A DNA stretch of 64,000 nt from Escherichia coli (lineage in GTDB: Bacteria; Pseudomonadota; Gammaproteobacteria; Enterobacterales; Enterobacteriaceae), in NCBI RefSeq assembly GCF_041248615.1, contig NZ_CP158426.1; one strand, given 5' to 3'. A model generated the notes under the pieces. The model was not told the DNA's origin and made no database searches. It worked only from the letters and a program-made list of their open reading frames with translations. Shown here piece after piece: positions 13,731-63,843 of this stretch. The first letter of the stretch is position 1; every line of letters begins with the position of its first letter. The position numbers and the translations under genes are program-made.

Positions 13731-14273
13731 ATGAAACGTTCAATTATTGCTGCCGCTGTCTTTTCTTCTTTTTTTATGAGCGCTGGGGTATTTGCCGCAG
13801 ACGTTGATACCGGAACATTAACCATTAAAGGGAATATTGCAGAATCTCCGTGTAAATTCGAAGCGGGTGGCGATTCAGTAAGTATTAATATGCCAACTGT
13901 ACCAACCACTGTCTTTGAAGGTAAAGCTAAATACTCGACCTATGATGATGCAGTCGGTGTAACCAGCAGCATGTTAAAAATTAGCTGTCCGAAAGAAGTT
14001 GCTGGTGTAAAACTCTCGTTGATTACCAACGATAAAATAACCGGAAACGATAAGGCGATAGCCAGTAGCAACGATACCGTGGGGTACTATCTCTATTTAG
14101 GTGATAACAGCGATGTCCTGGATGTTTCTGCACCTTTTAACATTGAGAGTTATAAGACAGCGGAAGGTCAATATGCTATTCCGTTTAAAGCAAAATACCT
14201 GAAGCTGACAGATAATTCAGTGCAATCAGGTGATGTGTTATCTTCTCTGGTTATGCGTGTGGCGCAGGATTAA
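13731..14273 (+). CDS. yehD: Chaperone-usher fimbrial major subunit
   Basis: 180-aa ORF with signal peptide (MKRSIIAAAVFSSFFMSAGVFA) and fimbrial-subunit-like composition; first gene of yehDCBA. Confidence 0.85.
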   Translation: MKRSIIAAAVFSSFFMSAGVFAADVDTGTLTIKGNIAESPCKFEAGGDSVSINMPTVPTTVFEGKAKYSTYDDAVGVTSSMLKISCPKEVAGVKLSLITNDKITGNDKAIASSNDTVGYYLYLGDNSDVLDVSAPFNIESYKTAEGQYAIPFKAKYLKLTDNSVQSGDVLSSLVMRVAQD

Positions 14274-20157: not shown

Positions 20158-20430
20158 ATGTCTCATACCATCCGTGATAAACAGAAACTGAAAGCGCGTG
20201 CCAGTAAGATTCAGGGCCAGGTCGTGGCGCTCAAGAAAATGCTCGACGAGCCGCACGAATGCGCTGCAGTTTTACAACAGATTGCTGCTATCCGTGGCGC
20301 GGTAAACGGTCTGATGCGGGAAGTGATTAAAGGTCATCTGACGGAACACATCGTTCACCAGGGGGATGAGCTAAAACGTGAAGAAGATCTGGATGTCGTT
20401 CTGAAGGTGCTGGATTCTTATATCAAATAA
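20158..20430 (+). CDS. rcnR: Ni/Co-responsive repressor RcnR (CsoR/RcnR family)
   Basis: 90-aa [71 protein letters not shown]. Confidence 0.95.
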
Positions 20431-20519
20431 TTTATTAACGCTATTGTAAAACTGCCGTTTTTCCTCGTTTACAACGCGTGCGCTGGACATTACCATCCTC
20501 CTCTGCGATTTATCATCGC

Positions 20520-20599
20520 AACCAAACGACTCGGGGTGCCCTTCTGCGTGAAGGCTGAGAAATACCCGTATCACCTGATCTGGATAATGCCAGCGTAGG
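20520..20599 (+). repeat. Left 80-bp direct repeat (attL-like); copy of the thiM TPP-riboswitch aptamer sequence
   Basis: aaccaaacgactcggggtgcccttctgcgtgaaggctgagaaatacccgtatcacctgatctggataatgccagcgtagg is identical base for base to 33185-33264. Confidence 0.9.
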
Positions 20600-20654
20600 T
20601 TGCCAACATTCTGATTAGTATTCATGTGGTTACATTTCTTTTTGTCCGTGTGTA

Positions 20655-21986
20655 ATGCACCTAATGTACAAAAAGAGCGTAAACATGAGGTACAAAACTC
20701 TTCCATACACGTTTCAAAGAAACGGTAATTACTATCTACAGATTCGGCTTTCGAATGGTCGGATGTATAAAAAATCACTTCTCACTGACAGCTATCGTGA
20801 AGTCTCTGCTTTGATGATTGGTGTTGCTCCGTACATTCCTTTTGTTAAATCATTAGCCATCACAATCCCGATGTTTGATGCCTTTGTTTCAAACCTGATT
20901 ATGTCAAAACTTAGGGCTGTAAAAGTTCCGCTGCTATCACATCAGTCGGTAATTACCCCTGCTACATTCGAGGAACCAGCGACACAAGCCGAACCGCAAA
21001 ACATGCTAACTCTTTCTGATGCGTGGGCTATGTATAAAGCGGAAAAGGGTAAAACATGGACAAAGTCGATCTCAAGGGCGAATGAGCGTTACATGGAAGT
21101 CTTGATGGTTGTCTTGGGAGAGACAACTGACGTAGTTGCGATTTCTAAGCAGGACATCAAGCAGGTGATGGAAGTTGTTGAGAATTTGCCTAAGCGTGTT
21201 GTCCAACCGTATCGCTCAATGAACATCCAGCAACTGATTGAATGTGATGATGTATCACCGAATGAGTTAGTAGGAGTGGAAGCCATTCATAAGCATCTCA
21301 AAATCTACAAATCGCTTTTCAAGACTTTTCTAACAGAAAACAAAGATATTTTGATTAAATCCCCAACTGATGGGGTAGTAGCAGCACCATCTAAAGCAAG
21401 GTTTGGAGCATACAGTTCGGCGGAGATGAAGAAGTTTGTAGAGTGGGCACTTAAGCAGCCAGATGGCTGGCAGAAGTGGATAACATTGTTGTTGGCATAC
21501 ACAGGAGCCAGAAGGGGAGAAATTGCCAAACTGGAAAAATCACAAATAAAATATGATGAGGATAGCCATCGGTATTATTTCCTGATTGCAGAAGGAGGGC
21601 AGGGGAAAACCGAAAATGCTACCCGACAAGTAGTGATACACCCTAAGTTGATCGAATGGGGTTTCATGGAATACGTTGATCGCCAGTGGAAAGAACGGAT
21701 TTTTTCAGAAGTGGCTGGTACAAACATGACGAAGATCGGTAAAGAATTTGCTGATGTGCGTGACCAGCTTGACATTCCGTACTTAGACGATTTTGGACAG
21801 CGGAGGCTTTTGCATAGCATTCGTCATTCTGTTTGCTCTACTGCGATGGCTGGATGGGTAAAGAACATCTTGCATCTGCAACAAACAGTAGGCCATGAGA
21901 AAAGTGGAGGGATCACTAAACGCTACTTACATACGTTCCCACTATCATCAATTTGTTATGTTATTGATGGGATTAGTTGGGTCTGA
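20655..21986 (+). CDS. Tyrosine-type site-specific integrase (island integrase); start may be at MRYKTLPY (20685)
   Basis: C-terminal catalytic signature: AYTGARRGE (box I Arg), HSIRHSV (H-x-x-R), ITKRYLH (Tyr nucleophile). Sits directly next to the left repeat. Confidence 0.85.
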   Translation: MHLMYKKSVNMRYKTLPYTFQRNGNYYLQIRLSNGRMYKKSLLTDSYREVSALMIGVAPYIPFVKSLAITIPMFDAFVSNLIMSKLRAVKVPLLSHQSVITPATFEEPATQAEPQNMLTLSDAWAMYKAEKGKTWTKSISRANERYMEVLMVVLGETTDVVAISKQDIKQVMEVVENLPKRVVQPYRSMNIQQLIECDDVSPNELVGVEAIHKHLKIYKSLFKTFLTENKDILIKSPTDGVVAAPSKARFGAYSSAEMKKFVEWALKQPDGWQKWITLLLAYTGARRGEIAKLEKSQIKYDEDSHRYYFLIAEGGQGKTENATRQVVIHPKLIEWGFMEYVDRQWKERIFSEVAGTNMTKIGKEFADVRDQLDIPYLDDFGQRRLLHSIRHSVCSTAMAGWVKNILHLQQTVGHEKSGGITKRYLHTFPLSSICYVIDGISWV

Positions 21987-22203
21987 AACTGCTAAGAATG
22001 ATAGGAAAAGCTACTTAATGATCCTTAGTTTTGGATGAAATTGAAGATTACAAAGATCTTGAGCGAATAAGAGCGTTTTTTAATCAAAAAAGCCATAAAA
22101 ACTTTTCTTGACTGTATATTAACACAGTGCTTCTACTATGTAGAAGAAATCGACATGAAAAATTTGATATGGTAAATTTTATCCATGATAACAAAAAGGT
22201 ATT

Positions 22204-23106
22204 GTGGATATGTTACTACCAATACGAGTTCATAAACGATTTCTAACTTTATTTAAGACTTTGCAAATTGACGATTGCCCACCGCAATCAACTTTAAATA
22301 TTCATGTACTTAATATCGAAAGCAATGAATTTATATACTGTAAATTAGTTGAAGAATTACGTGACATAATAATTACTTATGTACATTCGAATAGAAGGCT
22401 TGAGGAGTTTAAGGAAAGTTATCCTTCGTATAGCCCTAAACCTTTTTTCGAAGCAATACAAAAATTTCGCAATTATACGTCAAACGAAGGTGAGTTAGGT
22501 GAACTGCTTTTATACGCTTTTCTTGAAACAGGACTAAATGCTCCGAAATTACTTTCCAAAATGCAATTGAAAACAGATTCTAATGATTACATTAAGGGTT
22601 CTGATGGTGTACATCTGTTAGAATTAGATGATGGTTATCAATTAATATTTGGAGAATCAAAGCTCTATGCCGATCTTTTAGAAGGTGCTCGAGAAGCGTT
22701 TGATTCTATTTTAGATTTTAAAAGTAATGGAATGGCATTTGAAAGAGGGCTGATAGATACACACGTTATAAATGAAATGGTTTCAGAAGAAGGTTATGAG
22801 AAAATAAAATCAATTCTTCTTCCTTCTTCTGGCGATGATGGGCCAGATCTTGATTTATCCTTTGGTATATTTCTTGGTTTTGAATTGAAAATAGATAGCT
22901 CACAGTTATCATTGAAAAACAAAGAGTTTAGAGATTGGGTTAATGAGTCCGTGAAACAACATGCTACTCGCGTGGTCAGTACGATACGAAGGAAAATTAT
23001 TAATCATAAATTATATGGTCACGAATTCCACATATATATAGTTCCTTTTACCGATATTGATGTTACACGAAAAAAATTAATTCATGAAATGCTAACAATT
23101 AAGTGA
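22204..23106 (+). CDS. PD-(D/E)xK nuclease-like protein, HamA (DUF1837)-like candidate; start GTG 22204 or ATG 22210
   Basis: Motifs in the order expected for the restriction-endonuclease fold: acidic helix EGELGELLLYAFLE, then SDGVHLLELDDG, then LIFGESKLY (E-x-K). AT-rich; stop overlaps the start of the next gene. Confidence 0.55.
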   Translation: MDMLLPIRVHKRFLTLFKTLQIDDCPPQSTLNIHVLNIESNEFIYCKLVEELRDIIITYVHSNRRLEEFKESYPSYSPKPFFEAIQKFRNYTSNEGELGELLLYAFLETGLNAPKLLSKMQLKTDSNDYIKGSDGVHLLELDDGYQLIFGESKLYADLLEGAREAFDSILDFKSNGMAFERGLIDTHVINEMVSEEGYEKIKSILLPSSGDDGPDLDLSFGIFLGFELKIDSSQLSLKNKEFRDWVNESVKQHATRVVSTIRRKIINHKLYGHEFHIYIVPFTDIDVTRKKLIHEMLTIK

Positions 23107-25691
23107 ACACTATGAATGAATTAAATTCAAGTAAAAACATTCATTTGGCAGCTCGTCTTGCAGATGATGCTTTTGAAAGTGCTTATTTTAAAGAAATCAA
23201 TAAGTTTATAAGTGGTTTATACAATTACAGTTTATTTAACTGCGATTCAGATGTTAGTCTCTCCGAGAGTGATAACAATAAAATAGCACACGCTTTGCGT
23301 TTTGCAGATATATTTTCACATTCTTCAAAAGAAAATCATAGATCATGTGCATTTGAAATTATAAGTAGAATAGCCTTATTAAAAAAACATGATCCTTATT
23401 TTAAATTTATAGGTACTGCTGTTATTAATCGGCTTGGGGTTTATGCAGCAGAAAAACTCATATCAAAAGGGGTAAAATTACCCTTAGATAGAGAAGTTGA
23501 TTCTATTATTAAAAAATCAGTTCAGAAAACAGATGAAGATGGAGTATATTTCACTGATAAACAACATGAGTTATACAAACTTTTAAAAAGTAGCAAAACA
23601 ATTAGTTTTGCTGGTCCCACTTCGATGGGAAAGTCATTTGTTATTAATGCATACATTAAGGAAATAACTCTTAAAAAAGAGCTTAAAAATATAGCTTTAA
23701 TTGTTCCTACACGGGCTTTAATAAGCCAAAATGCACTTAAGTTAAAAATTGATATTGCATTGTATAAGAATGAAAGCCCTTATAAAGTTGTTACGACATC
23801 CTACATTATTAATGGTGATGAAAGTAAAAATAAAGGCTATATTTTTATTCTCACCCCAGAAAGGCTGGTTAGTCTCATAAGCACTATTCCTGGACTAATG
23901 ATTGATTATGTTTTTGTAGATGAAGCTCAAAAGTTAACAACAAAAAATGATTCGAGGAGTCTTGTTACTTATTCAGCTATAGAGCAAACAATTAGTAAAA
24001 ATCCTGAGGCAAGATTATTCTTCTCTTCACCTAATTTATCTAATCCTGAAATATTTAATATTTTGTTTGATAGAAAAGACGCTTCGGTATATAGAAATAC
24101 AGAAGGTGCAACTACTCAGAATATGTATTTTATTGATCTTTTAAATAGCAGCTTTAGCTATGTTAATACCGAGAAAAGGACGCTTGAAAAAATAGATGAG
24201 ATCTCTAATACTTACACGAATACAAATGATGTTATCTATAAATTAAATAATGGTAAAAGTAAAATAATTTATTGTGGGGGGATAGAAAGCACGCTTGAGA
24301 GAACACGTAGCTTTATCAATTATCTCAAAATTAATAAGAAAAAAAGAAAGCATTTAAATTTAGAAATATCTTCTGAGATAAGAAACTTTGTTCATGATAA
24401 CTATGAACTTGCAGAAGCCATCAACTATGGTGTTGCTTTCCACTTTGGAAACTTGCCTCAATCGATTCGAGATTTAATTGAGCATCATTTCAAAATAGGA
24501 AATATTGACTATCTATTCTGTACATCAACCCTACTTGAGGGAGTCAATTTACCTGCAAGATCCGTATTTATTCTTACGCATAAAAAAGGCCCCAGTCCAT
24601 TAGAGTCGGTTGATTTTTGGAATCTGGCTGGGAGAGCTGGGCGATTATCTATGGAATTGTCAGGGGATATTTTTTGTATTAGGGATGATAATAAGCTTTG
24701 GAATAAAAAAGCTGTTGATAATATCCTTCTGTCTGACAAAAATAACATTTCATTAAAGCCAAGCTTCTATATTGAAGACGAAAAAAGATTGAACGATTTA
24801 CACCATATAATTACGACTGGTAAAACAGGGAATATTAAAAATGCTGAGTTCCTTAGAACTTTAGGAGATATGATAAGAATAGACACTCTGAGGGATTCTA
24901 AAGAACTTCCTCTTATTAGTTATTTCCAAAGCAGTGGAAAATCAGAAATTTTGTTAAGTGCAGAAAAAAGCACTGAAAATATTACCATGCCAATGAATAT
25001 CCTTTTGGCAAATAGTCATATTGCGATTGATTCGCAGTATCATGCTTTTAAAAAAATAAAAAGCCTTACAGTTAAGGAACTGAAATTATCATGGCAGCCT
25101 ACATACGAAGAAATTAAAGAAAAATTGAATTTGATATTCGATATTTACCAAGTTGAAAAGTTTGCAACAGGTAGAGAACGTCTTTATTTAAATTCAATTC
25201 CATATTATGCAGTATTACTGTTTCAATGGATTCGTGGAAATAGTCTACAGGAAATTATCTCGGGGGCAATTGCTTATAGAAAGAACAAAAGTATATATAT
25301 TAAAAATACACCTGTTCTTTTTGACAGCGAAAACCCAGCTCATTTAACTGCATTAGTTAATGAAACTATAAAAGACATTGAGTTGCGTGTAGGTTACCAG
25401 TTACAAAATTATTTTTCACATTACTGTCAGCTTCTGAATTATGTGTTACAAGGAAATCCAGGGGCAAACTGGTCTCAGTTCATTGAGTTTGGCTCTAATG
25501 AGCCAATAGTATGGCACCTACAAATGATGGGCTTTTCAAGGGATAGTGCAGTTTTTCTCAAGAAGAATTTTTCAAAACATCTTAAACTTGATAATGAAAT
25601 GAATAAACTCATCATAATGGATAAGGAACTGATCAAGCGTTCTTTCAAAAAAGATGGACTACATTACTTAGAAATCCAATCGTTATTATAA
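23103..25691 (+). CDS. Superfamily-2 helicase (DEAQ box), HamB-like candidate
   Basis: Walker A/motif I FAGPTSMGKSFV, motif II VFVDEAQKL, motif VI-like NLAGRAGRL; about 170-aa N-terminal extension before the helicase core; GTGA start/stop overlap with the upstream gene. Confidence 0.6.
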   Translation: MNTMNELNSSKNIHLAARLADDAFESAYFKEINKFISGLYNYSLFNCDSDVSLSESDNNKIAHALRFADIFSHSSKENHRSCAFEIISRIALLKKHDPYFKFIGTAVINRLGVYAAEKLISKGVKLPLDREVDSIIKKSVQKTDEDGVYFTDKQHELYKLLKSSKTISFAGPTSMGKSFVINAYIKEITLKKELKNIALIVPTRALISQNALKLKIDIALYKNESPYKVVTTSYIINGDESKNKGYIFILTPERLVSLISTIPGLMIDYVFVDEAQKLTTKNDSRSLVTYSAIEQTISKNPEARLFFSSPNLSNPEIFNILFDRKDASVYRNTEGATTQNMYFIDLLNSSFSYVNTEKRTLEKIDEISNTYTNTNDVIYKLNNGKSKIIYCGGIESTLERTRSFINYLKINKKKRKHLNLEISSEIRNFVHDNYELAEAINYGVAFHFGNLPQSIRDLIEHHFKIGNIDYLFCTSTLLEGVNLPARSVFILTHKKGPSPLESVDFWNLAGRAGRLSMELSGDIFCIRDDNKLWNKKAVDNILLSDKNNISLKPSFYIEDEKRLNDLHHIITTGKTGNIKNAEFLRTLGDMIRIDTLRDSKELPLISYFQSSGKSEILLSAEKSTENITMPMNILLANSHIAIDSQYHAFKKIKSLTVKELKLSWQPTYEEIKEKLNLIFDIYQVEKFATGRERLYLNSIPYYAVLLFQWIRGNSLQEIISGAIAYRKNKSIYIKNTPVLFDSENPAHLTALVNETIKDIELRVGYQLQNYFSHYCQLLNYVLQGNPGANWSQFIEFGSNEPIVWHLQMMGFSRDSAVFLKKNFSKHLKLDNEMNKLIIMDKELIKRSFKKDGLHYLEIQSLL

Positions 25692-25697
25692 AACTGC

Positions 25698-25728
25698 CGA
25701 ATCAGAGTCTTTTATTGATTCTGATTCG
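25698..25728 (+). terminator. Hairpin immediately after the helicase gene (weak terminator candidate)
   Basis: CGAATCAGA-(13 nt)-TCTGATTCG; no strong T-tract, so confidence is low. Confidence 0.3.
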
Positions 25729-25999
25729 CACTTATATAGTTAAATCAAAAGGAGCATTAAAATTTTTCAGTAGCGATTTAGTATGCTAAATCGCTGCATA
25801 ACGAATCTGCTTCTAAATCTTGATTAAGTGTTTCGAACTGCCTTGATTGTTTATTGCTACACTTTATAATTAATCGCAACACACAAAACAATACAATGTA
25901 GGCAGTTGCACAGAATTAATTACAGGCACATTATGGATATCGAGAGGATTCGAACAGTTTTAAACTGCAAGCCCTTTGACTTTATCCCCTCCTACTATA

Positions 26000-26575
26000 T
26001 CAGCGTTTGATGCCGCTAATACTGGCAAGCATTTCTTTCTTCACACGAAAAACTGTAGCCCTGCCGCAATCACATAACTTTGCTATCTCGTCTGGTGTAT
26101 TCTTCCCGGCCTGTAACATATCGATAATCTTGTTATGTAGCTCTTTGTTCTTTTGCTTGCCCTTGTACTTCTTAGCCTCTTTAGCAAGAGCAATCCCCTC
26201 ATTGCGACGAGATGCGATCATACCCCGCTCAAATTCTGCAGCGGCTCCCATCATGGTTAGGATAAGGCGTGATTGTGGGGAATTATCAAAACTCATAGAG
26301 TTTGCAAGGAATTGAACAGTGATTCCACGAGCCACGAGGTTATCAATCATTTCCAGCAAATCGCGGGTATTACGTGCAAGGCGATCAATCGAGTGAGTAA
26401 CGAGCGTGTCACCTTCGCGGAGGTGTGAAAGCAGGTTCAACAATTCAGGTCTTTCGCTGGTGGACTTACCTGATTCTTTCTCTGCCACAATTTTGTCACA
26501 AACAGGTTCCAGCACTGCCAACTGACGCTCAAGATTTTGATCCTTTGTTGAGACTCTCGCGTAACCAAAAATCAT
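26000..26575 (-). CDS. Serine recombinase (resolvase/invertase family)
   Basis: N-terminus MIFGYARVSTKDQNLERQ (catalytic Ser in YARVST context), C-terminal HTH-like tail; 191 aa. Confidence 0.85.
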   Translation of the reverse strand: MIFGYARVSTKDQNLERQLAVLEPVCDKIVAEKESGKSTSERPELLNLLSHLREGDTLVTHSIDRLARNTRDLLEMIDNLVARGITVQFLANSMSFDNSPQSRLILTMMGAAAEFERGMIASRRNEGIALAKEAKKYKGKQKNKELHNKIIDMLQAGKNTPDEIAKLCDCGRATVFRVKKEMLASISGIKR

Positions 26576-26600
26576 TTTCCTGCCCTCACTTACGTGAAAA

Positions 26601-26662
26601 GTATCATTTGAATTTACTTAATGATACAGTATCATTTAAATGCATTCAACATCTAAATGATA
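26601..26662. promoter_or_regulatory. Cluster of three dyad-symmetric elements upstream of the serine recombinase gene (res-like site)
   Basis: GTATCATT-11 nt-AATGATAC; TGATAC-A-GTATCA; ATCATTTAAATG...CATCTAAATGAT. Position immediately 5' of the resolvase start is typical of res sites. Confidence 0.45.
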
Positions 26663-27081
26663 CTAAACGAGACGAGAAAAGCGAGTATCGTTAGGGAGTA
26701 CCCAAAAGAGATTTTTGATCGTGCGTTTTTTAGTCAATGTAGGGTTAGTGAAAAGTTCAGTACCGAGATCTGAGTTCACGGCATTTTGTCGACGGGGTTG
26801 AACCTGATTAGGCGAACGAGATTTTAAATCAGGCGGAATAAAACAAGTTGTACTTTTATCTGAGTAAAAGATCCCTTTAACTTTTTAGTCAGAAATCGTG
26901 ATACTAGGGGTTTGGTTATTTTGTGTCCTTAAGGCCAGTACTTTTAGCGAGGACGAAAAAACGGCCTACATGAGAACGCTTACAGTAACTTAAGTATATT
27001 ATCCAAAAAGTCACTTAACTTAAATCAATTTGGATGCAAAATCGCCACACTTTGCAAGTGAACACATACCGGGCAACAAGC

Positions 27082-27109
27082 AAATAAAAAAGGCCACTTT
27101 CGCGACCTT
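27082..27109 (-). terminator. Rho-independent terminator after the 119-aa gene
   Basis: Minus-strand RNA: AAGGUCGC-GAAA-GUGGCCUU (GNRA tetraloop) followed by UUUUUAUUUG. Confidence 0.65.
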
Positions 27110-27125
27110 GTACCAGTACAAACAC

Positions 27126-27485
27126 TCATTCAGAACGATCAAGTACCATATATGCTGGCTGACACATGCTGCCCCGCTCCTGTAGCCAGTAGTAATCAAG
27201 ATCGGCAACACGCACGTCCAATCCAGAATCTACACGGTTGATCTGTAACCGTAGCCCTACAGTATCCTTGTACGATAAACCAGATTTAACATTGTATTTG
27301 TACTTAACACCGTTTTCCTGTTCAAACTGTTTAAGGAAAGGCGTCATTTGTTTCTGAATTTCTTTCAAACAAATAACCTCATTATCAATAGCAAAGGGGG
27401 GTTCTGTTTTTCCATCAGGTACAGCAGCCTGTAAATGAAAGGAAGTACTCAACAATAACAGCATTGCAACAGAAGTCTTTTTCAT
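27126..27485 (-). CDS. Small secreted/periplasmic protein of unknown function
   Basis: Sec-type signal peptide MKKTSVAMLLLLSTSFHLQA; 43 bp downstream of the membrane-protein gene, same strand. Confidence 0.6.
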   Translation of the reverse strand: MKKTSVAMLLLLSTSFHLQAAVPDGKTEPPFAIDNEVICLKEIQKQMTPFLKQFEQENGVKYKYNVKSGLSYKDTVGLRLQINRVDSGLDVRVADLDYYWLQERGSMCQPAYMVLDRSE

Positions 27486-27528
27486 TTTAATTCCTTATTA
27501 AAGAACAGTACATTATATTTCAATGGAC

Positions 27529-28569
27529 TTAATAACAATATTTTATATTTCCTTCGGGTTTTCTCATGCATTTAATTCCTTCAGGAATATAATCAGTTAC
27601 GGGAGCAGGTCTGGCATCAGGTCTTGAAAGACGATTGGATATAGAAGACAACAGACTGAAAACACACTCATTAAATGATTTTTGATATTTATTTTTTTCA
27701 TAAAAGTACTGCATGGTGATTTTATCTCTTTCGTATTGCAATTCTTTGCCAAGCTGAATCCTATCCATATCAATTCCATTTCTCATAGCATTAAATCTTT
27801 CGTTCAATAAATTAAATTGAGATTTATTCCATTCATTTAAAGGAAATAAAGAATTGTTAAGCCTTTGCCTACAATTAGATTGCTCGATAGCTGACATGTA
27901 TTCTTTCATACTAACGCCAATATCTAAGTATGTGAGTTGTCCAGCAGTTCTATCAACTGAGTTATTAGGGTAAGATTTAATTTCAGTAAGTATTGACTCT
28001 GTTAATACTGCATTTTCTTCTAAATCTTTGCTAATAGTTATTTGAGCTTGTTCTCTTTTATCCTTATCAAATATTGAAATGTATTTCTTTACTATATCCT
28101 GATTAGCTTTCTCGGCTGCTACTAACGCATCTTGAACCTTCTTTTCCGCCGCTTTAACTCGTTGTTCTTCTACAAATTTCGCGTAGTCATCAGTATTTGT
28201 AATGTGATTTTCACGAGCGATAGAAAACTCTTTACTATCTTTAAAACCAAGTTTTTGTGCTCTGGCTCCATCGCTTGAAGATCGGGCAGAACTTGCCACG
28301 AAAGCGAGCACAATGATCAGTACAGGAACCGTATAATTATTAACGAGTTTATAGGGTAAGAACTTCGCTTTAAGCGTACCATAACCCAAAACAGCCCAGC
28401 CTATCGCGGCAGTACTTGCCAGTAGCTGGCACAATCCAGCGACGGAAAGCATGATTACCGACCAGAAGCCTGTACCGACTGCGAAAAGATCACCAAATTT
28501 CTCCATTGACGCAAGGAATAAAAACACTCCCCAAATGCCATAAAATCCTATTTTCAAATATTTACTCAC
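27529..28569 (-). CDS. Inner-membrane protein (3-4 N-terminal TM helices) with coiled-coil-rich soluble C-terminal domain; function unknown
   Basis: Hydrophobic segments in the first ~100 aa; charged helical region (EEQRVKAAEKKVQDALVAAEKANQDIVKK); AT-rich codon usage. Confidence 0.6.
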   Translation of the reverse strand: MSKYLKIGFYGIWGVFLFLASMEKFGDLFAVGTGFWSVIMLSVAGLCQLLASTAAIGWAVLGYGTLKAKFLPYKLVNNYTVPVLIIVLAFVASSARSSSDGARAQKLGFKDSKEFSIARENHITNTDDYAKFVEEQRVKAAEKKVQDALVAAEKANQDIVKKYISIFDKDKREQAQITISKDLEENAVLTESILTEIKSYPNNSVDRTAGQLTYLDIGVSMKEYMSAIEQSNCRQRLNNSLFPLNEWNKSQFNLLNERFNAMRNGIDMDRIQLGKELQYERDKITMQYFYEKNKYQKSFNECVFSLLSSISNRLSRPDARPAPVTDYIPEGIKCMRKPEGNIKYCY

Positions 28570-28779
28570 CGCAATTATCCTTTAATAATTTTCCAAATCG
28601 ATGGTTCGTTCTATTTGTATTATCGACAATAATTCGTTTGCCTTTAGGTAGATCCCTTAAAAAGGAATCCCCCCAAAATTTATAGATTAGCAGTTGTACC
28701 ACTCTCACTGTTTTGTCACTCCCATTATCTTCTCTCAGGTCAAAAGTACGGACTTAAAGCCGTCCGTGTTCAGGTGCTC

Positions 28780-28900
28780 AAGAGTAGCACGCATATCAAT
28801 AAATGATCGATAAAAACGATCAATTAATGGCTTATTGATCGCTATAACCTATCAATGACTATTAATTCAATACAAATCAATAGGTAAAATCGATCAAGAG
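28780..28900. repeat. ATCAAT/GATC-rich iteron-like cluster in an ORF-poor region
   Basis: About six ATCAAT (or complement) motifs in both orientations and several GATC sites within ~120 bp; further GATC pair at 29096-29103. Confidence 0.4.
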
Positions 28901-29552
28901 GATTCGTCATCCATGAAAGGGGTTATGTATCTGATTTCAATACAGGGAGTATTAGCGATACCATCACGCAAACGCTCTTAAAGCGTAGCTACGGCGTTTT
29001 GTAGGGTTTTTGGTCATTCATGTGTGTCAGTAATGAACATCGCATTCAGGGGCTTCCTGTGCGTTTTGTCCGAAACACCATCATGAAGGGGGACAGATCG
29101 GATCGGGGTCGCTTCGCTCTGGTCAGTACTGGATAGTTCTTTTCCAGTAACTGAAACCGCAGATACCCCACTAAGTACACAAAGGAATTATTTGTAGAAT
29201 AAGTAATGAAATAACAGTCAGTTATGTACTTACTGACAGAACTAAAAACGCGATTAGGTTCGCTCTGTCAGTGACCGAAGGGAACGCAACAGTAGAATCT
29301 AATCCAGCGAACAGTACACGCAAGCGGGTGCTGTTTAATTGTTTTATCTATGTAAACAATGGGATAGCTATCAAGTACTCACTGCGTGAGCACTCTCACT
29401 AACTACCCGAAACAGTTCGCTTGCTTCGCCGCTCCTACTTTCAGGTAGTTAATTCGCTTTCGCTCGTTGTGATGTCCGAAATTTATTACCTATAGTATTA
29501 TAAGGTATTATTTTCCGGACATTTATGTATTTTTATGATGGTGTTCTGGACA

Positions 29553-31028
29553 TCATTTTTTGCTTTTTTGTACTTCCTTTTCGTATTTGTTCCACATAGC
29601 CTTTTGCTCTTCGGGACTGAGTGCTGTATTACCACTGGCAAGAAACACCTTGAACGCTTCTAACTCAAGCCCTGGGTTGCGGCTTTTCCAGCGGCGAAAA
29701 CGCTTAGCGTGATTATCATCAAGAGTGAAACGCTTTTGCTTATTCTTTGAACCTTGCGGCCTGCCTCTCGACCTCTGCTCATCATCAATACCGATATCTA
29801 TATACTCAATATTATCTGTAAGAGATCTGGCTTGCCATTCATCAAAAACATAAACAGTCTGTGTTTCAGTACTGTCAAAATCCCTTGAAATTCCTCGTAG
29901 TACGAACTGGTGTAAACTTTCGTACTCCCTCGCAACATGTATCGCCTCGCCGTCAATCTCAAAGAACAATTCGCACTGTTTAGCCTCTGTTTCAGAGGGA
30001 CGCATACAAGCGAGCCAGACGCACGTGAGCAAGTGTTGGTACTGGTTAAACCCTCTGGCATCCGGGCTTATCTCTGTGCCGTTTTTGAGGCTCTGAGAAT
30101 CGCTTTTGTTCTTCGTCCAGTAGAAATCCTGTCCCTCAAGTTTTTTATCAATAAATGAGTATATTTTTTGTACTTTATCAGGGTTATTAGTCTTCCATGT
30201 CTTCGATAGTTTTTGATTTTTTGAGAAGTAATAAACCTTTAATCTGTCTTTGAGAGCTGTTTTTCGTGTCAGTAATCCTCCAAGTTCAGTACTTTCAAAG
30301 AGTTCTTTATTGCCTTTATAGATCAATGAATTTTCGAAATTAGCTCCGAGAAAGGTGATTGATACGTCTTTGTACTTACTGAGATCTTTCCATGCGGTAA
30401 TATTAAGCTGTTCCTTTTTCGCATCGGTAAAGTACTCATTATTCATGATGAACATATCATTTTCGTTAATTGCTGGTAGCTGGTTCAAAATATTCTTCAG
30501 TACTTCCCCTTGTATTTCTGGTTTTCTTTCTGCCGCAATATACATATTTTTATCATCTAATGTCAGTACATTGTGTATTAATGAATTAAGAATTGTATTT
30601 TTTATATTAGTATCACCCTCATTAATATTCTGAAAAGAGTGAAAATTAGTAACGTCGTCAATATAAATATTACAGTCAGATAACAATTCAGGAGGAATTT
30701 TGAAAAACGTTTTATCTGTTATGAGTAATGTTTTATTACTTCCAGATGAAAGAAAGTTAATAACTGAATTAATAACACTTTCATCTTTTGGTACTGTATC
30801 TGTAATTATATACTCGCAATTATTGATTTGCTTTGCTGTCTGCTTAATAAGTTCTTGAGTGTTCTGTACTAAAATATATTTTTCAGTACTGTTATTGATT
30901 ATATTGCATATAGCAGTAGTTTTACCTGAACCACAAGGGGCGGAGACATACTTAAATTTATTATAAATAGGTGTGGGATTAATCATTTGTACACGCTCCA
31001 TATTGATTAATGTAGAAAGGTCAGCCAT
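29553..31028 (-). CDS. P-loop NTPase with basic C-terminal tail containing an AT-hook-like RGRP motif; function unknown
   Basis: N-terminal Walker A SAPCGSGKTT, Walker B-like NIYIDDV; C-terminus RSRGRPQGSKNKQKRF. Confidence 0.6.
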   Translation of the reverse strand: MADLSTLINMERVQMINPTPIYNKFKYVSAPCGSGKTTAICNIINNSTEKYILVQNTQELIKQTAKQINNCEYIITDTVPKDESVINSVINFLSSGSNKTLLITDKTFFKIPPELLSDCNIYIDDVTNFHSFQNINEGDTNIKNTILNSLIHNVLTLDDKNMYIAAERKPEIQGEVLKNILNQLPAINENDMFIMNNEYFTDAKKEQLNITAWKDLSKYKDVSITFLGANFENSLIYKGNKELFESTELGGLLTRKTALKDRLKVYYFSKNQKLSKTWKTNNPDKVQKIYSFIDKKLEGQDFYWTKNKSDSQSLKNGTEISPDARGFNQYQHLLTCVWLACMRPSETEAKQCELFFEIDGEAIHVAREYESLHQFVLRGISRDFDSTETQTVYVFDEWQARSLTDNIEYIDIGIDDEQRSRGRPQGSKNKQKRFTLDDNHAKRFRRWKSRNPGLELEAFKVFLASGNTALSPEEQKAMWNKYEKEVQKSKK

Positions 31029-31370
31029 TCCAGTGTCTGGCCTTTCGTTGTTTTAGTTATTAGTCTTTTTGAGTTGCGACAACTGCAAGAGAATGTTTAT
31101 AAACAAGTGAAATAAGCAGTTTTACCGCCTCAAAAGCTACAGTCAGTTTCGTAATTATTTTCGAAAGCATCGTAAATTTCACTTCGCTATCTTCTATGCA
31201 AAAATTAGCAGCCTGAGGTATTTAATGATTGAGATGTGGCCTGTTGATAAGAGGGTTTGTATTGCTTGTTCTGCTCTTTGTTAATTTGTGACTTATTCCT
31301 TTCACAATGATCGGCTATGTTTGATAACTCTGTTAGGAAATCACCTATGGCTACCATATTGGATTTGCCC

Positions 31371-32276
31371 CTATATTTCCAGACACCTGTTATCACTTAA
31401 CCCATTACTGGCCTGCTGCCGCAGATATTCCCGTGGCGAGCGATAACCCAGTGCACTATGCGGATGCCATTCGTTATAATGCTCGAACGCCTCTGCAAGG
31501 TTCTTTGCTGCCGTTAACCCGTCTGGTTTAGGCATGATACTGATGTAGTCACGCTTTATCGTTTTCACGAAGCTCTCTGCTATGCCGTTACTCTCCGGAC
31601 TCCGCACCGCCGTGTTCTTCGGTTCAAGCCCCAATATCCGGGCAAACTGCCGTGTTTCATTAGCCCGGTAGCATGAACCATTATCCGTCAGCCACTCTAC
31701 TGGAGACGCCGGAAGCTCGTTGCCGAAGCGGCGTTCCACCGCTCCCAGCATGACGTCCTGTACTGTTTCACTGTCGAAGCCGCCCGTAGTGACTGCCCAG
31801 TGCAGTGCCTCACGGTCACAGCAGTCCAGCGCGAACGTGACTCGCAGTTTTTCTCCGTTATCACAGCGGAACTCGAACCCGTCAGAGCACCATCGTTGAT
31901 TGCTTTCTTTCACGGCCACTTTGCCAGTATGTGCCCGTTTCGATGGCGGTACAGCGGTTTTTCGCTCAAGCAACAGCGCATTCTGGCGCATGATCCGGTA
32001 AACACGTTTGGCATTGATCGCAGGCGTACCATCAAGTTCGGCCTGTCTGCGAAGCAGCGCCCATACCCGACGATAACCATACGTGGGCAGCTCTCCGATA
32101 ACATGGTGTATACGGAGAAGCACATCCGTATCATCTGAGTGACGGCTGCGGCGACCATCTTTCCAGTCATCGGTTCGTCTGAGAATTACGTGCAACTGCG
32201 CACGCGACACCCGGAGACAACGGCTGACTAAGCTTACTCCCCATCCCCGGGCAATAAGGGCGCGTGCGCTATCCAC
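31371..32276 (-). CDS. insD: IS2 transposase OrfB (InsD), DDE domain
   Basis: 301-aa ORF recognised as IS2 InsD; overlaps insC in the -1 frame as expected for an orfAB frameshift fusion. Confidence 0.9.
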
Positions 32277-32599
32277 TTTTTTGCACGCCCGTATTCAACG
32301 GCTTCTTTAAGGAGTTCATTTTCCATCGTTTTTTTGCCGAGCAGGCGCTGGAGTTCTTTAATCTGCTTCATGGCAGCAGCAAGTTCAGAGGCAGGAACGA
32401 CCTGCTCTCCTGCGGCCACAGCAGTAAGACTTCCCTCCTGGTATTGCTTGCGCCAGAGAAATAACTGGCTGGCTGCCACACCGTGTTGCCGGGCAACAAG
32501 GGAGACCTTCATTCCCGGTTCAAAACTCTGCTGAACAATAGCGATCTTTTCCTGTGTAGTACGCCGTCTGCGTTTCTCCGGTCCTAAGACATCAATCAT
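32234..32599 (-). CDS. insC: IS2 OrfA (InsC), HTH protein
   Basis: [56 protein letters not shown]...; start taken at MIDVL (ORF track begins 45 nt upstream). Confidence 0.9.
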
Positions 32600-33184
32600 C
32601 TGCTCTCCAATGACTAGTCTAAAAACTAGTATTAAGACTATCACTTATTTAAGTGATATTGGTTGTCTGGAGATTCATGGGGCCAGTCTACATATAATCA
32701 TGTTCATCTTCTAATTCTTTAAATTTTAATAGAGAAATCTCTTCATAATATTCTTTCATTTTCATATAAATCACCTTTTATTTTTTTGTTGTTAACACAG
32801 GTTTTTTTCTGCACTACACATTATAGCACATAGAATTAATTCGTTTCATTTTCTGTCAATGAAATAGAGTAAAGATAAATGCTTTTATAAAGCACTTATC
32901 ACATCCGTTGCCTTGCTATATATAAAAAGTTCTCCAAACTATACTGGTGTATATTTTCCCCATCAGATACAGTTGTTTTTAAACATTACAATGTTGGATT
33001 CTTGGTTCCAAATAAATCGAGCAACTATTAGTGTTTCAAAATGAAGTTGGGAGCTATTCCTTAATTCGTATGAGGTACAAAATGGGGTACTCGGTGGGGT
33101 ACAGCGTGTATAAGTGACGTCACCACGGGTAAACTTGCATCGGCGAGCAACTTAACCTAAGCTGACAAAAATTAAGAGAAATGT

Positions 33185-33317
33185 AACCAAACGACTCGGG
33201 GTGCCCTTCTGCGTGAAGGCTGAGAAATACCCGTATCACCTGATCTGGATAATGCCAGCGTAGGGAAGTCACGGACCACCAGGTCATTGCTTCTTCACGT
33301 TATGGCAGGAGCAAACT
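33185..33317 (+). promoter_or_regulatory. thiM TPP riboswitch (thi-box aptamer plus expression platform); its first 80 bp are also the right direct repeat (attR-like) of the island
   Basis: Sequence ...cgactcggggtgcccttctgcgtgaaggctgagaaatacccgtatcacctgatctggataatgccagcgtagggaagtcacggaccaccaggtcattgcttcttcacgttatggcaggagcaaactATG matches the recalled E. coli thiM riboswitch. Confidence 0.9.
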
Positions 33318-34106
33318 ATGCAAGTCGACCTGCTGAGTTCCGCGCAATCTGCGCACGCGTTACACCTTTTTCACCAACATTCCCCTCTTGTGCACTGCAT
33401 GACCAACGATGTGGTGCAAACCTTTACTGCCAATACCTTGCTGGCGCTCGGTGCATCGCCAGCGATGGTTATCGAAACCGAAGAGGCCAGTCAGTTTGCG
33501 GCTATCGCCAGTGCGTTGCTGATTAACGTTGGCACGCTGACGCAGCCACGCGCACAGGCGATGCGTGCCGCCGTTGAACAGGCAAAACGCTCTCAAACAC
33601 CCTGGATGCTTGATCCAGTAGCGGTGGGTGCACTCGATTATCGCCGCCGTTTTTGTCTGGAACTTCTGTCTCATAAGCCAACCGCCATACGTGGTAATGC
33701 TTCGGAAATCATGGCATTAGCTGGCGTTGCTAATGGTGGACGGGGAGTGGATACCACTGACGCCGCAGCTAACGCGATACCCGCTGCACAAACACTGGCA
33801 CGGGAAACTGGCGCAATCGTCGTGGTCACTGGCGAGATGGATTATGTTACCGATGGACATCGTATCATTGGTATTCACGGTGGCGATCCGTTAATGACCA
33901 AAGTGGTAGGAACTGGCTGTGCATTATCGGCGGTTGTCGCTGCCTGTTGTGCGTTACCAGGCGATACGCTGGAAAATGTCGCATCTGCCTGTCACTGGAT
34001 GAAACAAGCCGGAGAACGCGCAGTCGCCAGTAGCGAGGGGCCAGGCAGTTTTGTTCCACATTTCCTTGATGCGCTCTGGCAATTGACGCCGGAGGTGCAG
34101 GCATGA
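33318..34106 (+). CDS. thiM: Hydroxyethylthiazole kinase
   Basis: 262-aa [36 protein letters not shown]...; 4-bp overlap with thiD. Confidence 0.95.
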
Positions 34107-49453: not shown

Positions 49454-49540
49454 AAAAAATAAGCCCGTGTAAGGGAGATTACACAGGCTAAGGAGGTGGT
49501 TCCTGGTACAGCTAGCATTTTATGGGTTATGTTTTTCAGC
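49454..49540 (-). ncRNA. cyaR: CyaR (RyeE) Hfq-dependent small RNA
   Basis: Minus-strand sequence GCTGAAAAACATAACCCATAAAATGCTAGCTGTACCAGGAACCACCTCCTTAGCCTGTGTAATCTCCCTTACACGGGCTTATTTTTT matches the recalled CyaR sequence, ending in a terminator hairpin and U-tract. Confidence 0.9.
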
Positions 49541-49624
49541 GAAACGGATGATAACCTTAATAAATGCAGCTGTATGTGATCGGTTTCTAAGAATTTTCCA
49601 TCCGGGAAAAATAATCGAAATTAA

Positions 49625-62856: not shown

Positions 62857-62999
62857 GAAACGGGAAAGCCCCTCCCGAGGAAGGGGCCTTAAATAAGGAA
62901 AGGGTCATGATGAAGCTACTCATCATCGTGGTGCTCTTAGTGATTAGCTACCCAGCATACTAAGACTACCAGGGCGGGGGAAACCCCGCTCTACCCTCA
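62857..62999 (-). ncRNA. sibB: Sib antisense sRNA, copy 1 (ends approximate)
   Basis: Minus-strand promoter TTGACA (63029-63034)-17 nt-TACTTT (63006-63011); terminator hairpin GCCCCTTCCTCGGGAGGGGC plus UUUCCCGUUU near 62860-62888; fully overlaps the ibs ORF. Confidence 0.65.
62907..62963 (+). CDS. ibsB: Ibs type I toxin peptide, copy 1 (MMKLLIIVVLLVISYPAY)
   Basis: 18-codon hydrophobic ORF with AGGAAAGGG SD; matches the Ibs peptide family. A/B assignment is approximate. Confidence 0.75.
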   Translation: MMKLLIIVVLLVISYPAY

Positions 63000-63184
63000 C
63001 TCCTGAAAGTATGCCTTCACGATAAGATTGTCAATCTGCAGGCTTTGCAGTCTGCGATCCTGCCAGCAAATATTCTTTGCGAGACGTTACGCAATAATCA
63101 CACTGGAAACTATTTTATCCGCAAGTCAGCGATAGACTGCATACAGGGCGAAAGGAGGTAAGCCGACGATTTCAGCGGGACGCT

Positions 63185-63327
63185 GAAACGGGAAAGCCCC
63201 TCCCGAGGAAGGGGCCTTAAATAAGGAAAGGGTCATGATGAAGATACTCATCATCGTGGTGCTCTTAGTGATTAGCTACCCAGCATACTAAGACTACCAG
63301 GGCGGGGGAAACCCCGCTCTACCCTCA
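63185..63327 (-). ncRNA. Sib antisense sRNA, copy 2 (ends approximate)
   Basis: Same promoter (TTGACA at 63357-63362) and terminator architecture, offset 328 bp from copy 1. Confidence 0.6.
63235..63291 (+). CDS. Ibs type I toxin peptide, copy 2 (MMKILIIVVLLVISYPAY)
   Basis: Identical to copy 1 except L4I; same SD context. Confidence 0.75.
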   Translation: MMKILIIVVLLVISYPAY

Positions 63328-63513
63328 CTCCTGAAAGTATGCCTTCACGATAAGATTGTCAATCCGCAGGCTTTGCAGTCTGCGATCCTGCCAGCAAATA
63401 TTCTTTGCGAGTCGTTACGCAATAATCACAGAGGAAACTATTTTGGTCACGCGTTAGCGATAGACTGCATTCAGGGCGAAAGGAGGTAAGCCGACGATTT
63501 CAGCGGGACGCTG

Positions 63514-63662
63514 AAACGGGAAACCCTCTCCCGGAGAAGAGGGCTTTTAATAAGGAAAGGGTTATGATGAAGCACGTCATCATACTGGAGATACTCTTAG
63601 TGATTAGCTTCCAGGCTTACTAAGAACACCAGGGGGAGGGAGAAACCTCTCCCTAACCCTCA
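63514..63662 (-). ncRNA. sibA: Sib antisense sRNA, copy 3 (ends approximate)
   Basis: Promoter TTGACA (63692-63697)-17 nt-TAATTT (63669-63674) on the minus strand; hairpin CCCTCTCCCGGAGAAGAGGG at 63524-63543. Confidence 0.6.
63564..63623 (+). CDS. ibsA: Ibs type I toxin peptide, copy 3 (MMKHVIILEILLVISFQAY)
   Basis: 19-codon ORF of IbsA type; contains a Glu codon (GAG) inside the hydrophobic stretch. Confidence 0.7.
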   Translation: MMKHVIILEILLVISFQAY

Positions 63663-63843
63663 CTCCTGAAATTATGTCACTCCGCCCTTAGTGTCAATCG
63701 ACGGCTCTCCGTTCTTGCGAGGCGAATAGCAAAATTTTCTGCGCCGCCGGGCCTAATTCTGAAAGTTTCTTCGTTTGCTCTTATTTCATTATTGCAATCG
63801 GTATGATACCGGGCCTCAATAATTCTCTAAGAAAGGATTTCTT

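Follow-up and report, generated by a model that had tools for sequence, protein, structure and literature searches.

We analysed a 64,000-nucleotide window of the Escherichia coli contig NZ_CP158426.1 (assembly GCF_041248615.1) and focused on two adjacent genes on its + strand, hamA and hamB (positions 22204-25691). The pair is very probably a complete and apparently intact type I Hachiman anti-phage system, with its function read from that of characterised relatives. A sequence-only reading of the same DNA had proposed the Hachiman layout, a HamA protein (DUF1837) followed by a HamB helicase, and profile, structural and contextual tests all supported this proposal. The same reading had named a distinct or undescribed nuclease-helicase system as an equal possibility. 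We rejected that alternative because the pair belongs to a catalogued Hachiman subfamily that is annotated in RefSeq, where the first gene carries the name 'HamA C-terminal domain-containing protein'. The system is thus already known, and PADLOC would call the locus as it is. The window matches the chromosome of the clinical E. coli isolate NRZ14408 (NZ_LT599825.1) at 100% identity. The result adds one more confidently assigned Hachiman system in a clinical isolate, which is relevant to predicting the phage susceptibility of the strain. It also provides an E. coli-native representative of the lineage with a short HamB and a predicted active HamA, easily tested beside the HamAB of strain ECOR31.

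Family membership of HamA was confirmed by the profile searches that the sequence-only reading had suggested. The PADLOC profile HamA1 (PDLC00156) matched with an E-value of 2.4e-120, residues 3-297 of the protein aligning on profile positions 1-297 of 298, and the Pfam family HamA (PF08878, DUF1837) matched over model positions 2-230 of 230 with an independent E-value of 1.4e-62; none of the NCBIfam models matched HamA. Among the solved structures, phmmer found only 9WH1_A, through its DUF1837 domain (E 9e-10), and a profile built from 30 HamA sequences reached the same chain in the PDB sequences at 7e-28. ECOR31 HamA (8VX9_A) gave no match at E <= 1 with the 30-sequence profile and none with phmmer. 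Because neither search goes beyond 9WH1_A, it is the fold search that ties this HamA to ECOR31 HamA. The AlphaFold2 model of HamA had a predicted local distance difference test score (pLDDT) of 87 and a predicted template modelling score of 0.90. At E <= 0.001, the fold search of this model against the PDB returned only the HamA chains 8ZUE_A, 8VX9_A, and 8VXY_A, all with probability 1.00, and the suggested structural comparison of the 300-amino-acid (aa) protein with HamA was thereby answered in the affirmative. FokI and BamHI followed weakly after these chains.

The acidic-helix, D, and E-x-K nuclease motifs described by the sequence-only reading are present in HamA. Numbered from the GTG codon at 22204, the motif EGELGELLLYAFLE lies at residues 95-108, SDGVHLLELDDG at 133-144, and LIFGESKLY at 147-155. 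The residues E97, E100, D134, E151, and K153 are invariant in 30 HamA homologs down to 40% identity. D134, E151, and K153 are expected to form the PD-(D/E)xK active site, with E97 and E100 as further candidate residues. In order and spacing, the five residues match D90, E93, D127, E147, and K149 of Streptococcus thermophilus HamA, which are essential there (PMC13064477), and the E-x-K pair corresponds to the mutated E138/K140 of ECOR31 HamA (PMC12278908) and E150/K152 of DEC14B HamA (PMC11914072); these equivalences follow motif order, spacing, and fold, not a computed alignment or a residue-level superposition. HamA consists of DUF1837 only and has no N-terminal effector domain, and its homologs are uniformly 295-305 aa long. 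Bacillus cereus members of the subfamily have a HamA of 302 aa and a HamB of 863 aa, and one Paenibacillus homolog is named 'Hachiman antiphage defense system protein HamA' by NCBI.

HamB was assigned by the same kinds of search. The PADLOC profile HamB1 (PDLC00176) matched with an E-value of 8.3e-296, residues 14-862 aligning on profile positions 2-845 of 845, and the Pfam families DEAD, Helicase_C, and ResIII were found in the protein. The closest solved HamB is 9WH1_B (E 3e-120, residues 20-860), which aligned end to end. Other solved relatives are AbpB (8ZUE_B, 3.7e-23) and ECOR31 HamB (8VX9_B, 2.4e-5), the latter through residues 438-524 (RecA2) only. The AlphaFold2 model of HamB (pLDDT 86) predicts residues 12-137 to be all-helical, and its fold matches are Hel308, the Pol theta helicase domain, and ECOR31 HamB (TMq up to 0.69). 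The helicase motifs named in the sequence-only reading were all found at defined positions, motif I (GPTSMGKS) at residues 171-178, motif II (DEAQ) at 273-276, and motif VI (AGRAGR) at 509-514 (numbering from GTG 23103), and motif III (SSPN) lies at 308-311. GPTSMGKS occurs in 29 of 30 HamB homologs, the D-E-A of motif II is invariant, and motifs III and VI are conserved. The fourth residue of motif II (window positions 23919-23930) is Q in 10 of the 30 homologs, including all enterobacterial ones sampled, and H in the other 20. In this alignment DEAQ reads as a conserved clade-specific substitution of the DExH histidine and not as a lesion. We also considered HamB as a member of the Hel308 family proper. 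This was rejected, as NCBIfam NF040935 scored 64.5 bits against a curated cut-off of 1200, indicating a related fold only. Outside Hachiman, HamB is structurally most similar to archaeal and eukaryotic Hel308 and to the helicase domain of Pol theta, with weak NCBIfam Hel308 matches, but neither of these is partnered by a HamA or carries the N-terminal helical domain of HamB.

Both open reading frames (ORFs) are present at exactly the coordinates claimed for them. The gene hamA (22204..23106, + strand) encodes a standalone DUF1837 protein of the PD-(D/E)xK nuclease type, 300 aa from GTG 22204, and hamB (23103..25691, + strand) encodes a superfamily 2 helicase, Ski2/Hel308-like with a HamB-type N-terminal helical region, 862 aa from GTG 23103. 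With the local base composition, stop-free frames of 862 and 300 codons are expected by chance with probabilities of 5e-33 and 6e-12, respectively. The GC content of the pair is 31.6%, compared with 47.8% and 52.1% in the flanks, in agreement with the AT-rich character noted before. The gene hamA lies immediately upstream of hamB on the same strand in an operon-like arrangement that is shared by four other genera. The sequence-only reading had further claimed translational coupling through a GTGA overlap. Tight linkage and shared orientation hold, but the 4-nucleotide (nt) overlap requires hamB to start at GTG 23103 and is not established. In RefSeq, and in the gene calls made on independent assemblies, hamA begins at ATG 22210 (297 aa) and hamB at ATG 23112 (859 aa), and these are more likely the true starts. 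They leave a 5-nt spacer between the TGA stop of hamA and hamB, and orthologs in other genera show 1-5 nt between the two genes. Since the annotated starts are ATG codons and the orthologs have such spacers, the overlap is doubtful and the 5-nt spacer is the more likely arrangement.

The presumed operon promoter would lie in the upstream intergenic region (21987..22203, + strand), an assignment that is weak and inferred. A sigma-70-like match from the promoter scan is located at 22150-22178, upstream of hamA, but it does not rise above chance: the scan gave 19 matches with 22.9 expected, and neither promoter nor terminator matches were more frequent than in shuffled sequence. An AAGG element resembling a Shine-Dalgarno sequence can be read at 22196-22199, also upstream of hamA. 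After hamB there is no third gene on the + strand; a convergent serine recombinase gene follows at a distance of 308 nt.

In the scheme of PMC11914072 (Nat Commun 2025), type I-A comprises systems with a standalone DUF1837 HamA that retains its active site, and 86% of HamA proteins fall in it (PMC11914072). The pair described here is assigned to type I-A because its HamA is a standalone DUF1837 protein with intact D134/E151/K153 and E97/E100. Neither HamC (DUF3223, the mark of type II) nor any other obligatory third component was seen at the locus.

The helicase-gated nuclease logic of the characterised relatives is expected to apply to this pair as well. Complex formation, trigger, DNA degradation, and the defence phenotype are taken from those relatives, and the following steps can be proposed. 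HamA and HamB would form a heterodimer through the N-terminal helical domain of HamB, and HamB bound to intact DNA or ATP would hold the HamA nuclease inactive. Upon phage infection or DNA damage, aberrant DNA, which in the nearest characterised systems is a free 3' end of single-stranded DNA (ssDNA), would enter the helicase channel of HamB. Its entry would stimulate the HamB ATPase and translocation (K177, D273-E274), leading to activation of the PD-(D/E)xK site of HamA. HamA (D134, E151, K153) would then degrade DNA largely without sequence specificity, and the degradation would result in abortive infection and stop the spread of the phage. This scheme follows ECOR31 HamAB, a heterodimer in which HamB restrains HamA on intact double-stranded DNA (dsDNA); a 3' ssDNA end in HamB leads to ATP hydrolysis, HamA becomes active, all cellular DNA is degraded, and the infection is abortive (PMC12278908). 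HamA of DEC14B (PMC11914072) and of S. thermophilus (PMC13064477) is likewise inactive alone and acts as a nuclease only when complexed with HamB. In trypsin-HamAB, 3'-overhang DNA is bound in the helicase channel and ATP hydrolysis releases the effector (bioRxiv 10.1101/2025.09.03.673762). Our literature search found no direct biochemical study of the combination of a compact HamB with an active HamA.

We compared the coding sequences with those of the Pectobacterium and Cronobacter orthologs, for which synonymous sites are not saturated. The ratio of nonsynonymous to synonymous substitution rates (dN/dS) was 0.06-0.08 for hamA and 0.12-0.13 for hamB, and HamA and HamB diverge in parallel across four comparisons. 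Together with the strict co-occurrence of the two genes, this parallel divergence lends indirect support to a predicted HamA-HamB complex. To judge by these ratios, both genes are under purifying selection. The pair is carried by 8 of 5426 complete E. coli genomes, always with the same integrase at the same site, and its island is carried in a rare E. coli lineage. The hamAB sequence is 99.8-100% identical across these eight unrelated isolates, which come from humans, poultry, and rodents. Identity with the ECOR04 and ECOR28 loci of Tuck et al. was not seen, as no ECOR record was among the contigs listed with an identical HamA, a list in which similar places are collapsed.

Several points weigh against an intact Hachiman system that works as ECOR31 does. 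The ortholog is known here from sequence and predicted structures alone, and no promoter match above chance was found upstream of hamA. HamB is truncated to 744 aa in the assembly GCA_020416165.1 (L006:3903-6137) and is annotated as two coding sequences in strain A37 (NZ_CP029327.1). Motif II is DEAQ in place of the family-majority DEAH. The system is distant from ECOR31, with a HamA identity of 13% that was found by fold only; HamB has 862 aa compared with 1174 aa in ECOR31, with sequence likeness limited to RecA2, and the OB fold is found only in III-A HamB such as that of ECOR31 (PMC13064477). In 9WH1, HamA is nuclease-dead and signals via a trypsin domain to an MBL nuclease (bioRxiv 10.1101/2025.09.03.673762). 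Finally, the reported ATPase triggers disagree, being 3' ssDNA for ECOR31 and trypsin-HamAB and dsDNA for AbpAB (PMC12278908, bioRxiv 10.1101/2025.09.03.673762, PMC11914072).

Some of these points would fit a decaying or silenced relic, that is, Hachiman genes no longer expressed or active in this strain. The damaged HamB in some carriers suggests occasional inactivation of the system, and the locus has been kept in very few of the complete E. coli genomes. AT-rich foreign DNA is a typical target of H-NS silencing, and the low GC content of the pair makes it a candidate target. The lack of a promoter match above chance would also fit a relic. However, both ORFs are intact in this strain, as are the catalytic and helicase motifs, and the low dN/dS together with the near-identity of the sequence across unrelated isolates speaks against decay. 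We therefore regard a relic as very unlikely and an intact Hachiman system as the far better account of the locus.

The remaining points concern the kind of Hachiman system that the pair represents. The systems of ECOR31 (PDB 8VX9/8VXA/8VXC/8VXY; Tuck et al., Cell 2024, PMC12278908) and DEC14B (PMC11914072) likewise consist of two genes, hamA and hamB, with a Ski2/Hel308-like HamB. Their HamA is a standalone DUF1837 protein with an intact D...ExK site, as here, and both systems are borne on islands beside an integrase, as is this pair. The fold likeness to ECOR31 is clear, with a Foldseek probability of 1.00 and a template modelling (TM) score of 0.52-0.60 for HamA and a TMq of 0.62-0.69 for HamB. 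The HamB proteins differ in layout: motif I lies near residue 177 here and near about 273 in DEC14B HamB, and motif II is DEAQ here in contrast to DEGH in the ECOR31/DEC14B-type HamB. An assignment to the ECOR31 type (III-A of PMC13064477, with a HamB of ~1170 aa and a C-terminal OB-like domain) was considered and rejected on the length of 862 aa, the likeness confined to RecA2, and the lack of a profile match to 8VX9_A. By these alignments, HamB falls in a lineage of compact helicases (~860 aa) whose sister is the trypsin-HamAB helicase, and not in the long ECOR31/DEC14B type.

The closest solved HamB, of 853 aa, is that of trypsin-HamAB from Hachiman-MBL (PDB 9WH1/9WHK/9WHU; bioRxiv 10.1101/2025.09.03.673762). 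Six residues of its DNA channel are named for 9WH1_B, and in an alignment read by hand two of them are identical in our HamB (R185/R204 and R268/R285) and two are conservatively replaced (Q433/N450 and F753/Y765). Both the motif Ia and the RSL arginine of the channel are conserved. The residues of the HamA-HamB interface of 9WH1, mapped by hand onto our pair, showed mixed conservation. The HamA proteins differ, as 9WH1_A is nuclease-dead, with H for D134 and SAA for E151-S-K153, whereas the HamA described here (300 aa) is intact. Hachiman-MBL also needs a third gene, the MBL DNase effector, and there is no third gene in the present system. Because this closest solved relative works through trypsin and MBL, the details of activation may differ.

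Two further relatives are informative. AbpAB (YfjL/YfjK) of the E. coli K-12 prophage CP4-57, a type I-B system (PDB 8ZUE; PMC11914072), has a HamB-type helicase that was found at E 3.7e-23, and AbpA (8ZUE_A) is the top fold match of our HamA (E 1.7e-6). Unlike this HamA, AbpA combines an N-terminal Cap4-type nuclease with an inactive DUF1837; AbpB, of 729 aa, is reported to have a dsDNA-stimulated ATPase (PMC11914072). In the Hachiman system of S. thermophilus (type III-B; PMC13064477), the Walker lysine of HamB is residue 275, compared with 177 here, indicating a longer N-terminal region. That system is often linked to PezAT and has a CNNNG cleavage preference (PMC13064477).

These comparisons raise the possibility of a mechanistically distinct Hachiman sub-lineage, in which an active HamA is under the control of a compact HamB of ~860 aa that lacks the OB domain and belongs with the trypsin-HamAB helicase. 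Such a system would depart from the ECOR31 model in its trigger (dsDNA or 3' ssDNA), oligomeric state, or cleavage specificity. By E-value, HamB lies much nearer to 9WH1_B (3e-120) and AbpB (3.7e-23) than to ECOR31 HamB (2.4e-5), and ECOR31 HamA is beyond the sequence reach of the HamA profile. Among characterised systems, the nuclease-active ones have a long HamB, the type I-A operon tested from DEC14B being 4.3 kb and ECOR31-like in size (PMC11914072), and 9WH1 forms higher-order oligomers on 3'-overhang DNA. The DEAQ variant of motif II is kept across the enterobacterial clade, and the published systems vary in ATPase trigger and in specificity, as in the CNNNG preference of S. thermophilus. 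On the other hand, the helicase-gated nuclease core is common to all characterised variants, which would reduce the divergence to a difference of detail, and the channel residues shared with 9WH1_B (2/6 identical, 2/6 conservative) argue for the same 3'-ssDNA channel. We consider a distinct mechanism possible but tentative, at perhaps one chance in a few. The lineage of compact HamB with active standalone HamA, which ranges from Enterobacteria and Firmicutes to methanogenic archaea, might on the same doubtful footing be a biochemically unstudied Hachiman class that may differ from ECOR31 in activating DNA ligand, oligomerisation, or cleavage specificity. If so, the compact-HamB lineage would be the ancestral state, and the trypsin-MBL variant would have arisen from it by loss of the HamA active site.

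The two genes travel as a unit. In Cronobacter, the same pair is found on the same type of island. Pectobacterium carotovorum (L002:5896-10944) has a HamA of 95% identity. Its hamAB closely precedes thiM-thiD and occupies a 4.95-kb insert between a decayed 26-nt copy of the 5' end of the thiM riboswitch (92% identical) and the intact riboswitch; as the insert has no integrase, it represents a stranded or minimal form of the island. In Serratia sp. 2723, hamAB has another carrier, an island inserted next to arsC that encodes a large serine recombinase of 568 aa, and an AbiGi-family gene (L011:11578-12375) adjoins the pair. In the archaeon Methanococcoides vulcani, the pair is beside an integrase, with DUF4357 and DUF499 genes downstream. 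Across Pectobacterium, Serratia, Cronobacter, and Methanococcoides, the pair sizes are 297-300 aa plus 856-862 aa. HamA and HamB homologs share a contig in at least eight further genomes, including ones of Mesobacillus, Paenibacillus, Leptospira, Metabacillus, Sutcliffiella, Cytobacillus, and Bacillus siamensis. Because the same pair recurs with different neighbours, the two-gene module is a conserved unit.

This modularity bears on another explanation, namely that the nuclease-helicase pair works for the island, by aiding its replication or recombination or by excluding competing elements, and not in anti-phage defence. The position of hamAB between two recombinase genes would be consistent with such a role, and another product of the island is a P-loop protein whose N-terminus is weakly CyRepA1-like; HamB is Hel308-like, and Hel308 is a repair helicase. 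Yet the pair is found with entirely different neighbours, in Pectobacterium without an integrase, and in related islands unrelated defence genes fill its place. Family members have also been repeatedly shown to defend against phage (PMC11914072, PMC12278908, PMC13064477). We give almost no credence to a role in the service of the island, less even than to a relic, and defence remains the expected function.

The related islands lie at the same site in the thiM riboswitch, and their integrases are 75-84% identical at the nucleotide level. We compared four of these sister islands (L014:13901-23139, L015:13901-24966, L016:8901-19360, and L017:8441-18945). In each, a variable slot comes right after the tyrosine integrase, and in three of them a serine recombinase closes the slot. 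Its cargo includes a ThsB-like TIR/PDC-S60 protein (E 7e-98), an NsnB/AriA-like ATPase (E 1e-53), a cluster of ImmA/IrrE, 'beta family', and sce7726 genes, or hypothetical genes only. Because the slots of sister islands hold other, unrelated defence genes, the defence role of hamAB is independently supported, and hamAB is not needed for the function of the island. The pair is horizontally acquired cargo in the variable defence slot of a 12.7-kb island, and the thiM-leader site looks like a cargo-swapping defence hotspot, which this carrier island illustrates. In E. coli B, a thiM-adjacent island encodes the type IV restriction enzyme EcoBLMcrX (PMC5487053).

The sequence-only reading had also placed the pair directly downstream of an integrase in a mobile island, and this context was confirmed. 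The island spans 20600-33264 (12,665 bp), and its ends are an exact 80-bp direct repeat at 20520-20599 and 33185-33264. The left copy, attL (20520..20599, + strand), is the 5' part of the thiM thiamine pyrophosphate (TPP) riboswitch (Rfam TPP 20522-20617, 58 bits). The right copy, attR (33185..33264, + strand), lies within the intact thiM riboswitch at 33187-33283 (Rfam 71.2 bits), after which thiM begins at 33318. There are no tRNA genes in the window, and the site of the island is the riboswitch. The repeat stops short of the sequence GAAGTC, which forms the 3' strand of helix P1, and in each of the five islands compared the place of this strand is taken by island DNA. The drop in Rfam score from 71 to 58 bits is explained by this replacement in the left copy, and the left aptamer copy is probably non-functional. 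Control of the integrase by the left riboswitch copy was considered and found unsupported, since the 3' strand of P1 is lost in all five islands. The native thiM promoter-like site (TTTACA-17-TACCAT, 20468-20496) is kept at the left end after integration, where it precedes the truncated aptamer and the integrase. At the right end, the DNA in front of thiMD is that of the island.

We reconstituted the empty site by joining 20300-20599 to 33265-33560. Of the 5426 complete E. coli genomes, 4727 have this rcnR-riboswitch-thiM junction without interruption, and in about 700, O157:H7 among them, the junction is split or its match covers under 80% of the length, indicating that the thiM site is often occupied. 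No paper naming the thiM riboswitch as an att site was found in the library searched.

The other genes of the island follow in the order tyrosine integrase, hamAB, convergent serine recombinase, two ORFs of no assigned function, P-loop protein (likewise of no assigned function), and IS3 element. The tyrosine integrase (20655..21986, + strand; RefSeq start 20685) adjoins the pair on its upstream side and was identified by PHROG integrase phrog_1 (1.3e-25), a weak XerA-like NCBIfam match, and RefSeq. The serine recombinase (26000..26575, - strand) is of the DNA invertase/resolvase type (PHROG DNA invertase 5.3e-58; Mpi/XisF-like in NCBIfam), and it closes the cargo slot that holds hamAB, at the same position as in related islands. 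The two ORFs of no assigned function encode a 119-aa protein with a signal-peptide-like N-terminus (27126-27485, - strand) and a predicted membrane protein of 346 aa without a family match (27529-28569, - strand). The P-loop protein has 491 aa (29553-31028, - strand) and matches phrog_2467 (E 1e-38), with a weak ResIII/DEAD Walker A region in addition to its CyRepA1-like N-terminus. For the island ORFs other than hamAB, Pfam and PHROGs gave nothing informative beyond the recombinases, and PADLOC gave no meaningful match; the P-loop, 346-aa, and 119-aa proteins had none, and the serine recombinase had one marginal match to HerA (E 0.009).

Three sister islands, L014, L015 (at 13997-14016), and L016, contain a perfect palindrome just past the crossover, GGCCGAAATTCGGCC, which in L014 is GGCCAAAATTTGGCC. 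At the same position the hamAB island has the degenerate GTTGCCAACATTCTGATTAG (window 20599-20618). The palindrome may be a core-binding site of the recombinase or a hairpin. In the flanking core genome, we found three tandem Sib antitoxin RNA genes (62892-63697, - strand) that score 141-146 bits each. K-12 has two Sib copies, sibA and sibB, at this locus. The flanking core genome also holds an OrzO-type antitoxin RNA and CyaR, in the minus-strand intervals 1258-1331 and 49457-49542.

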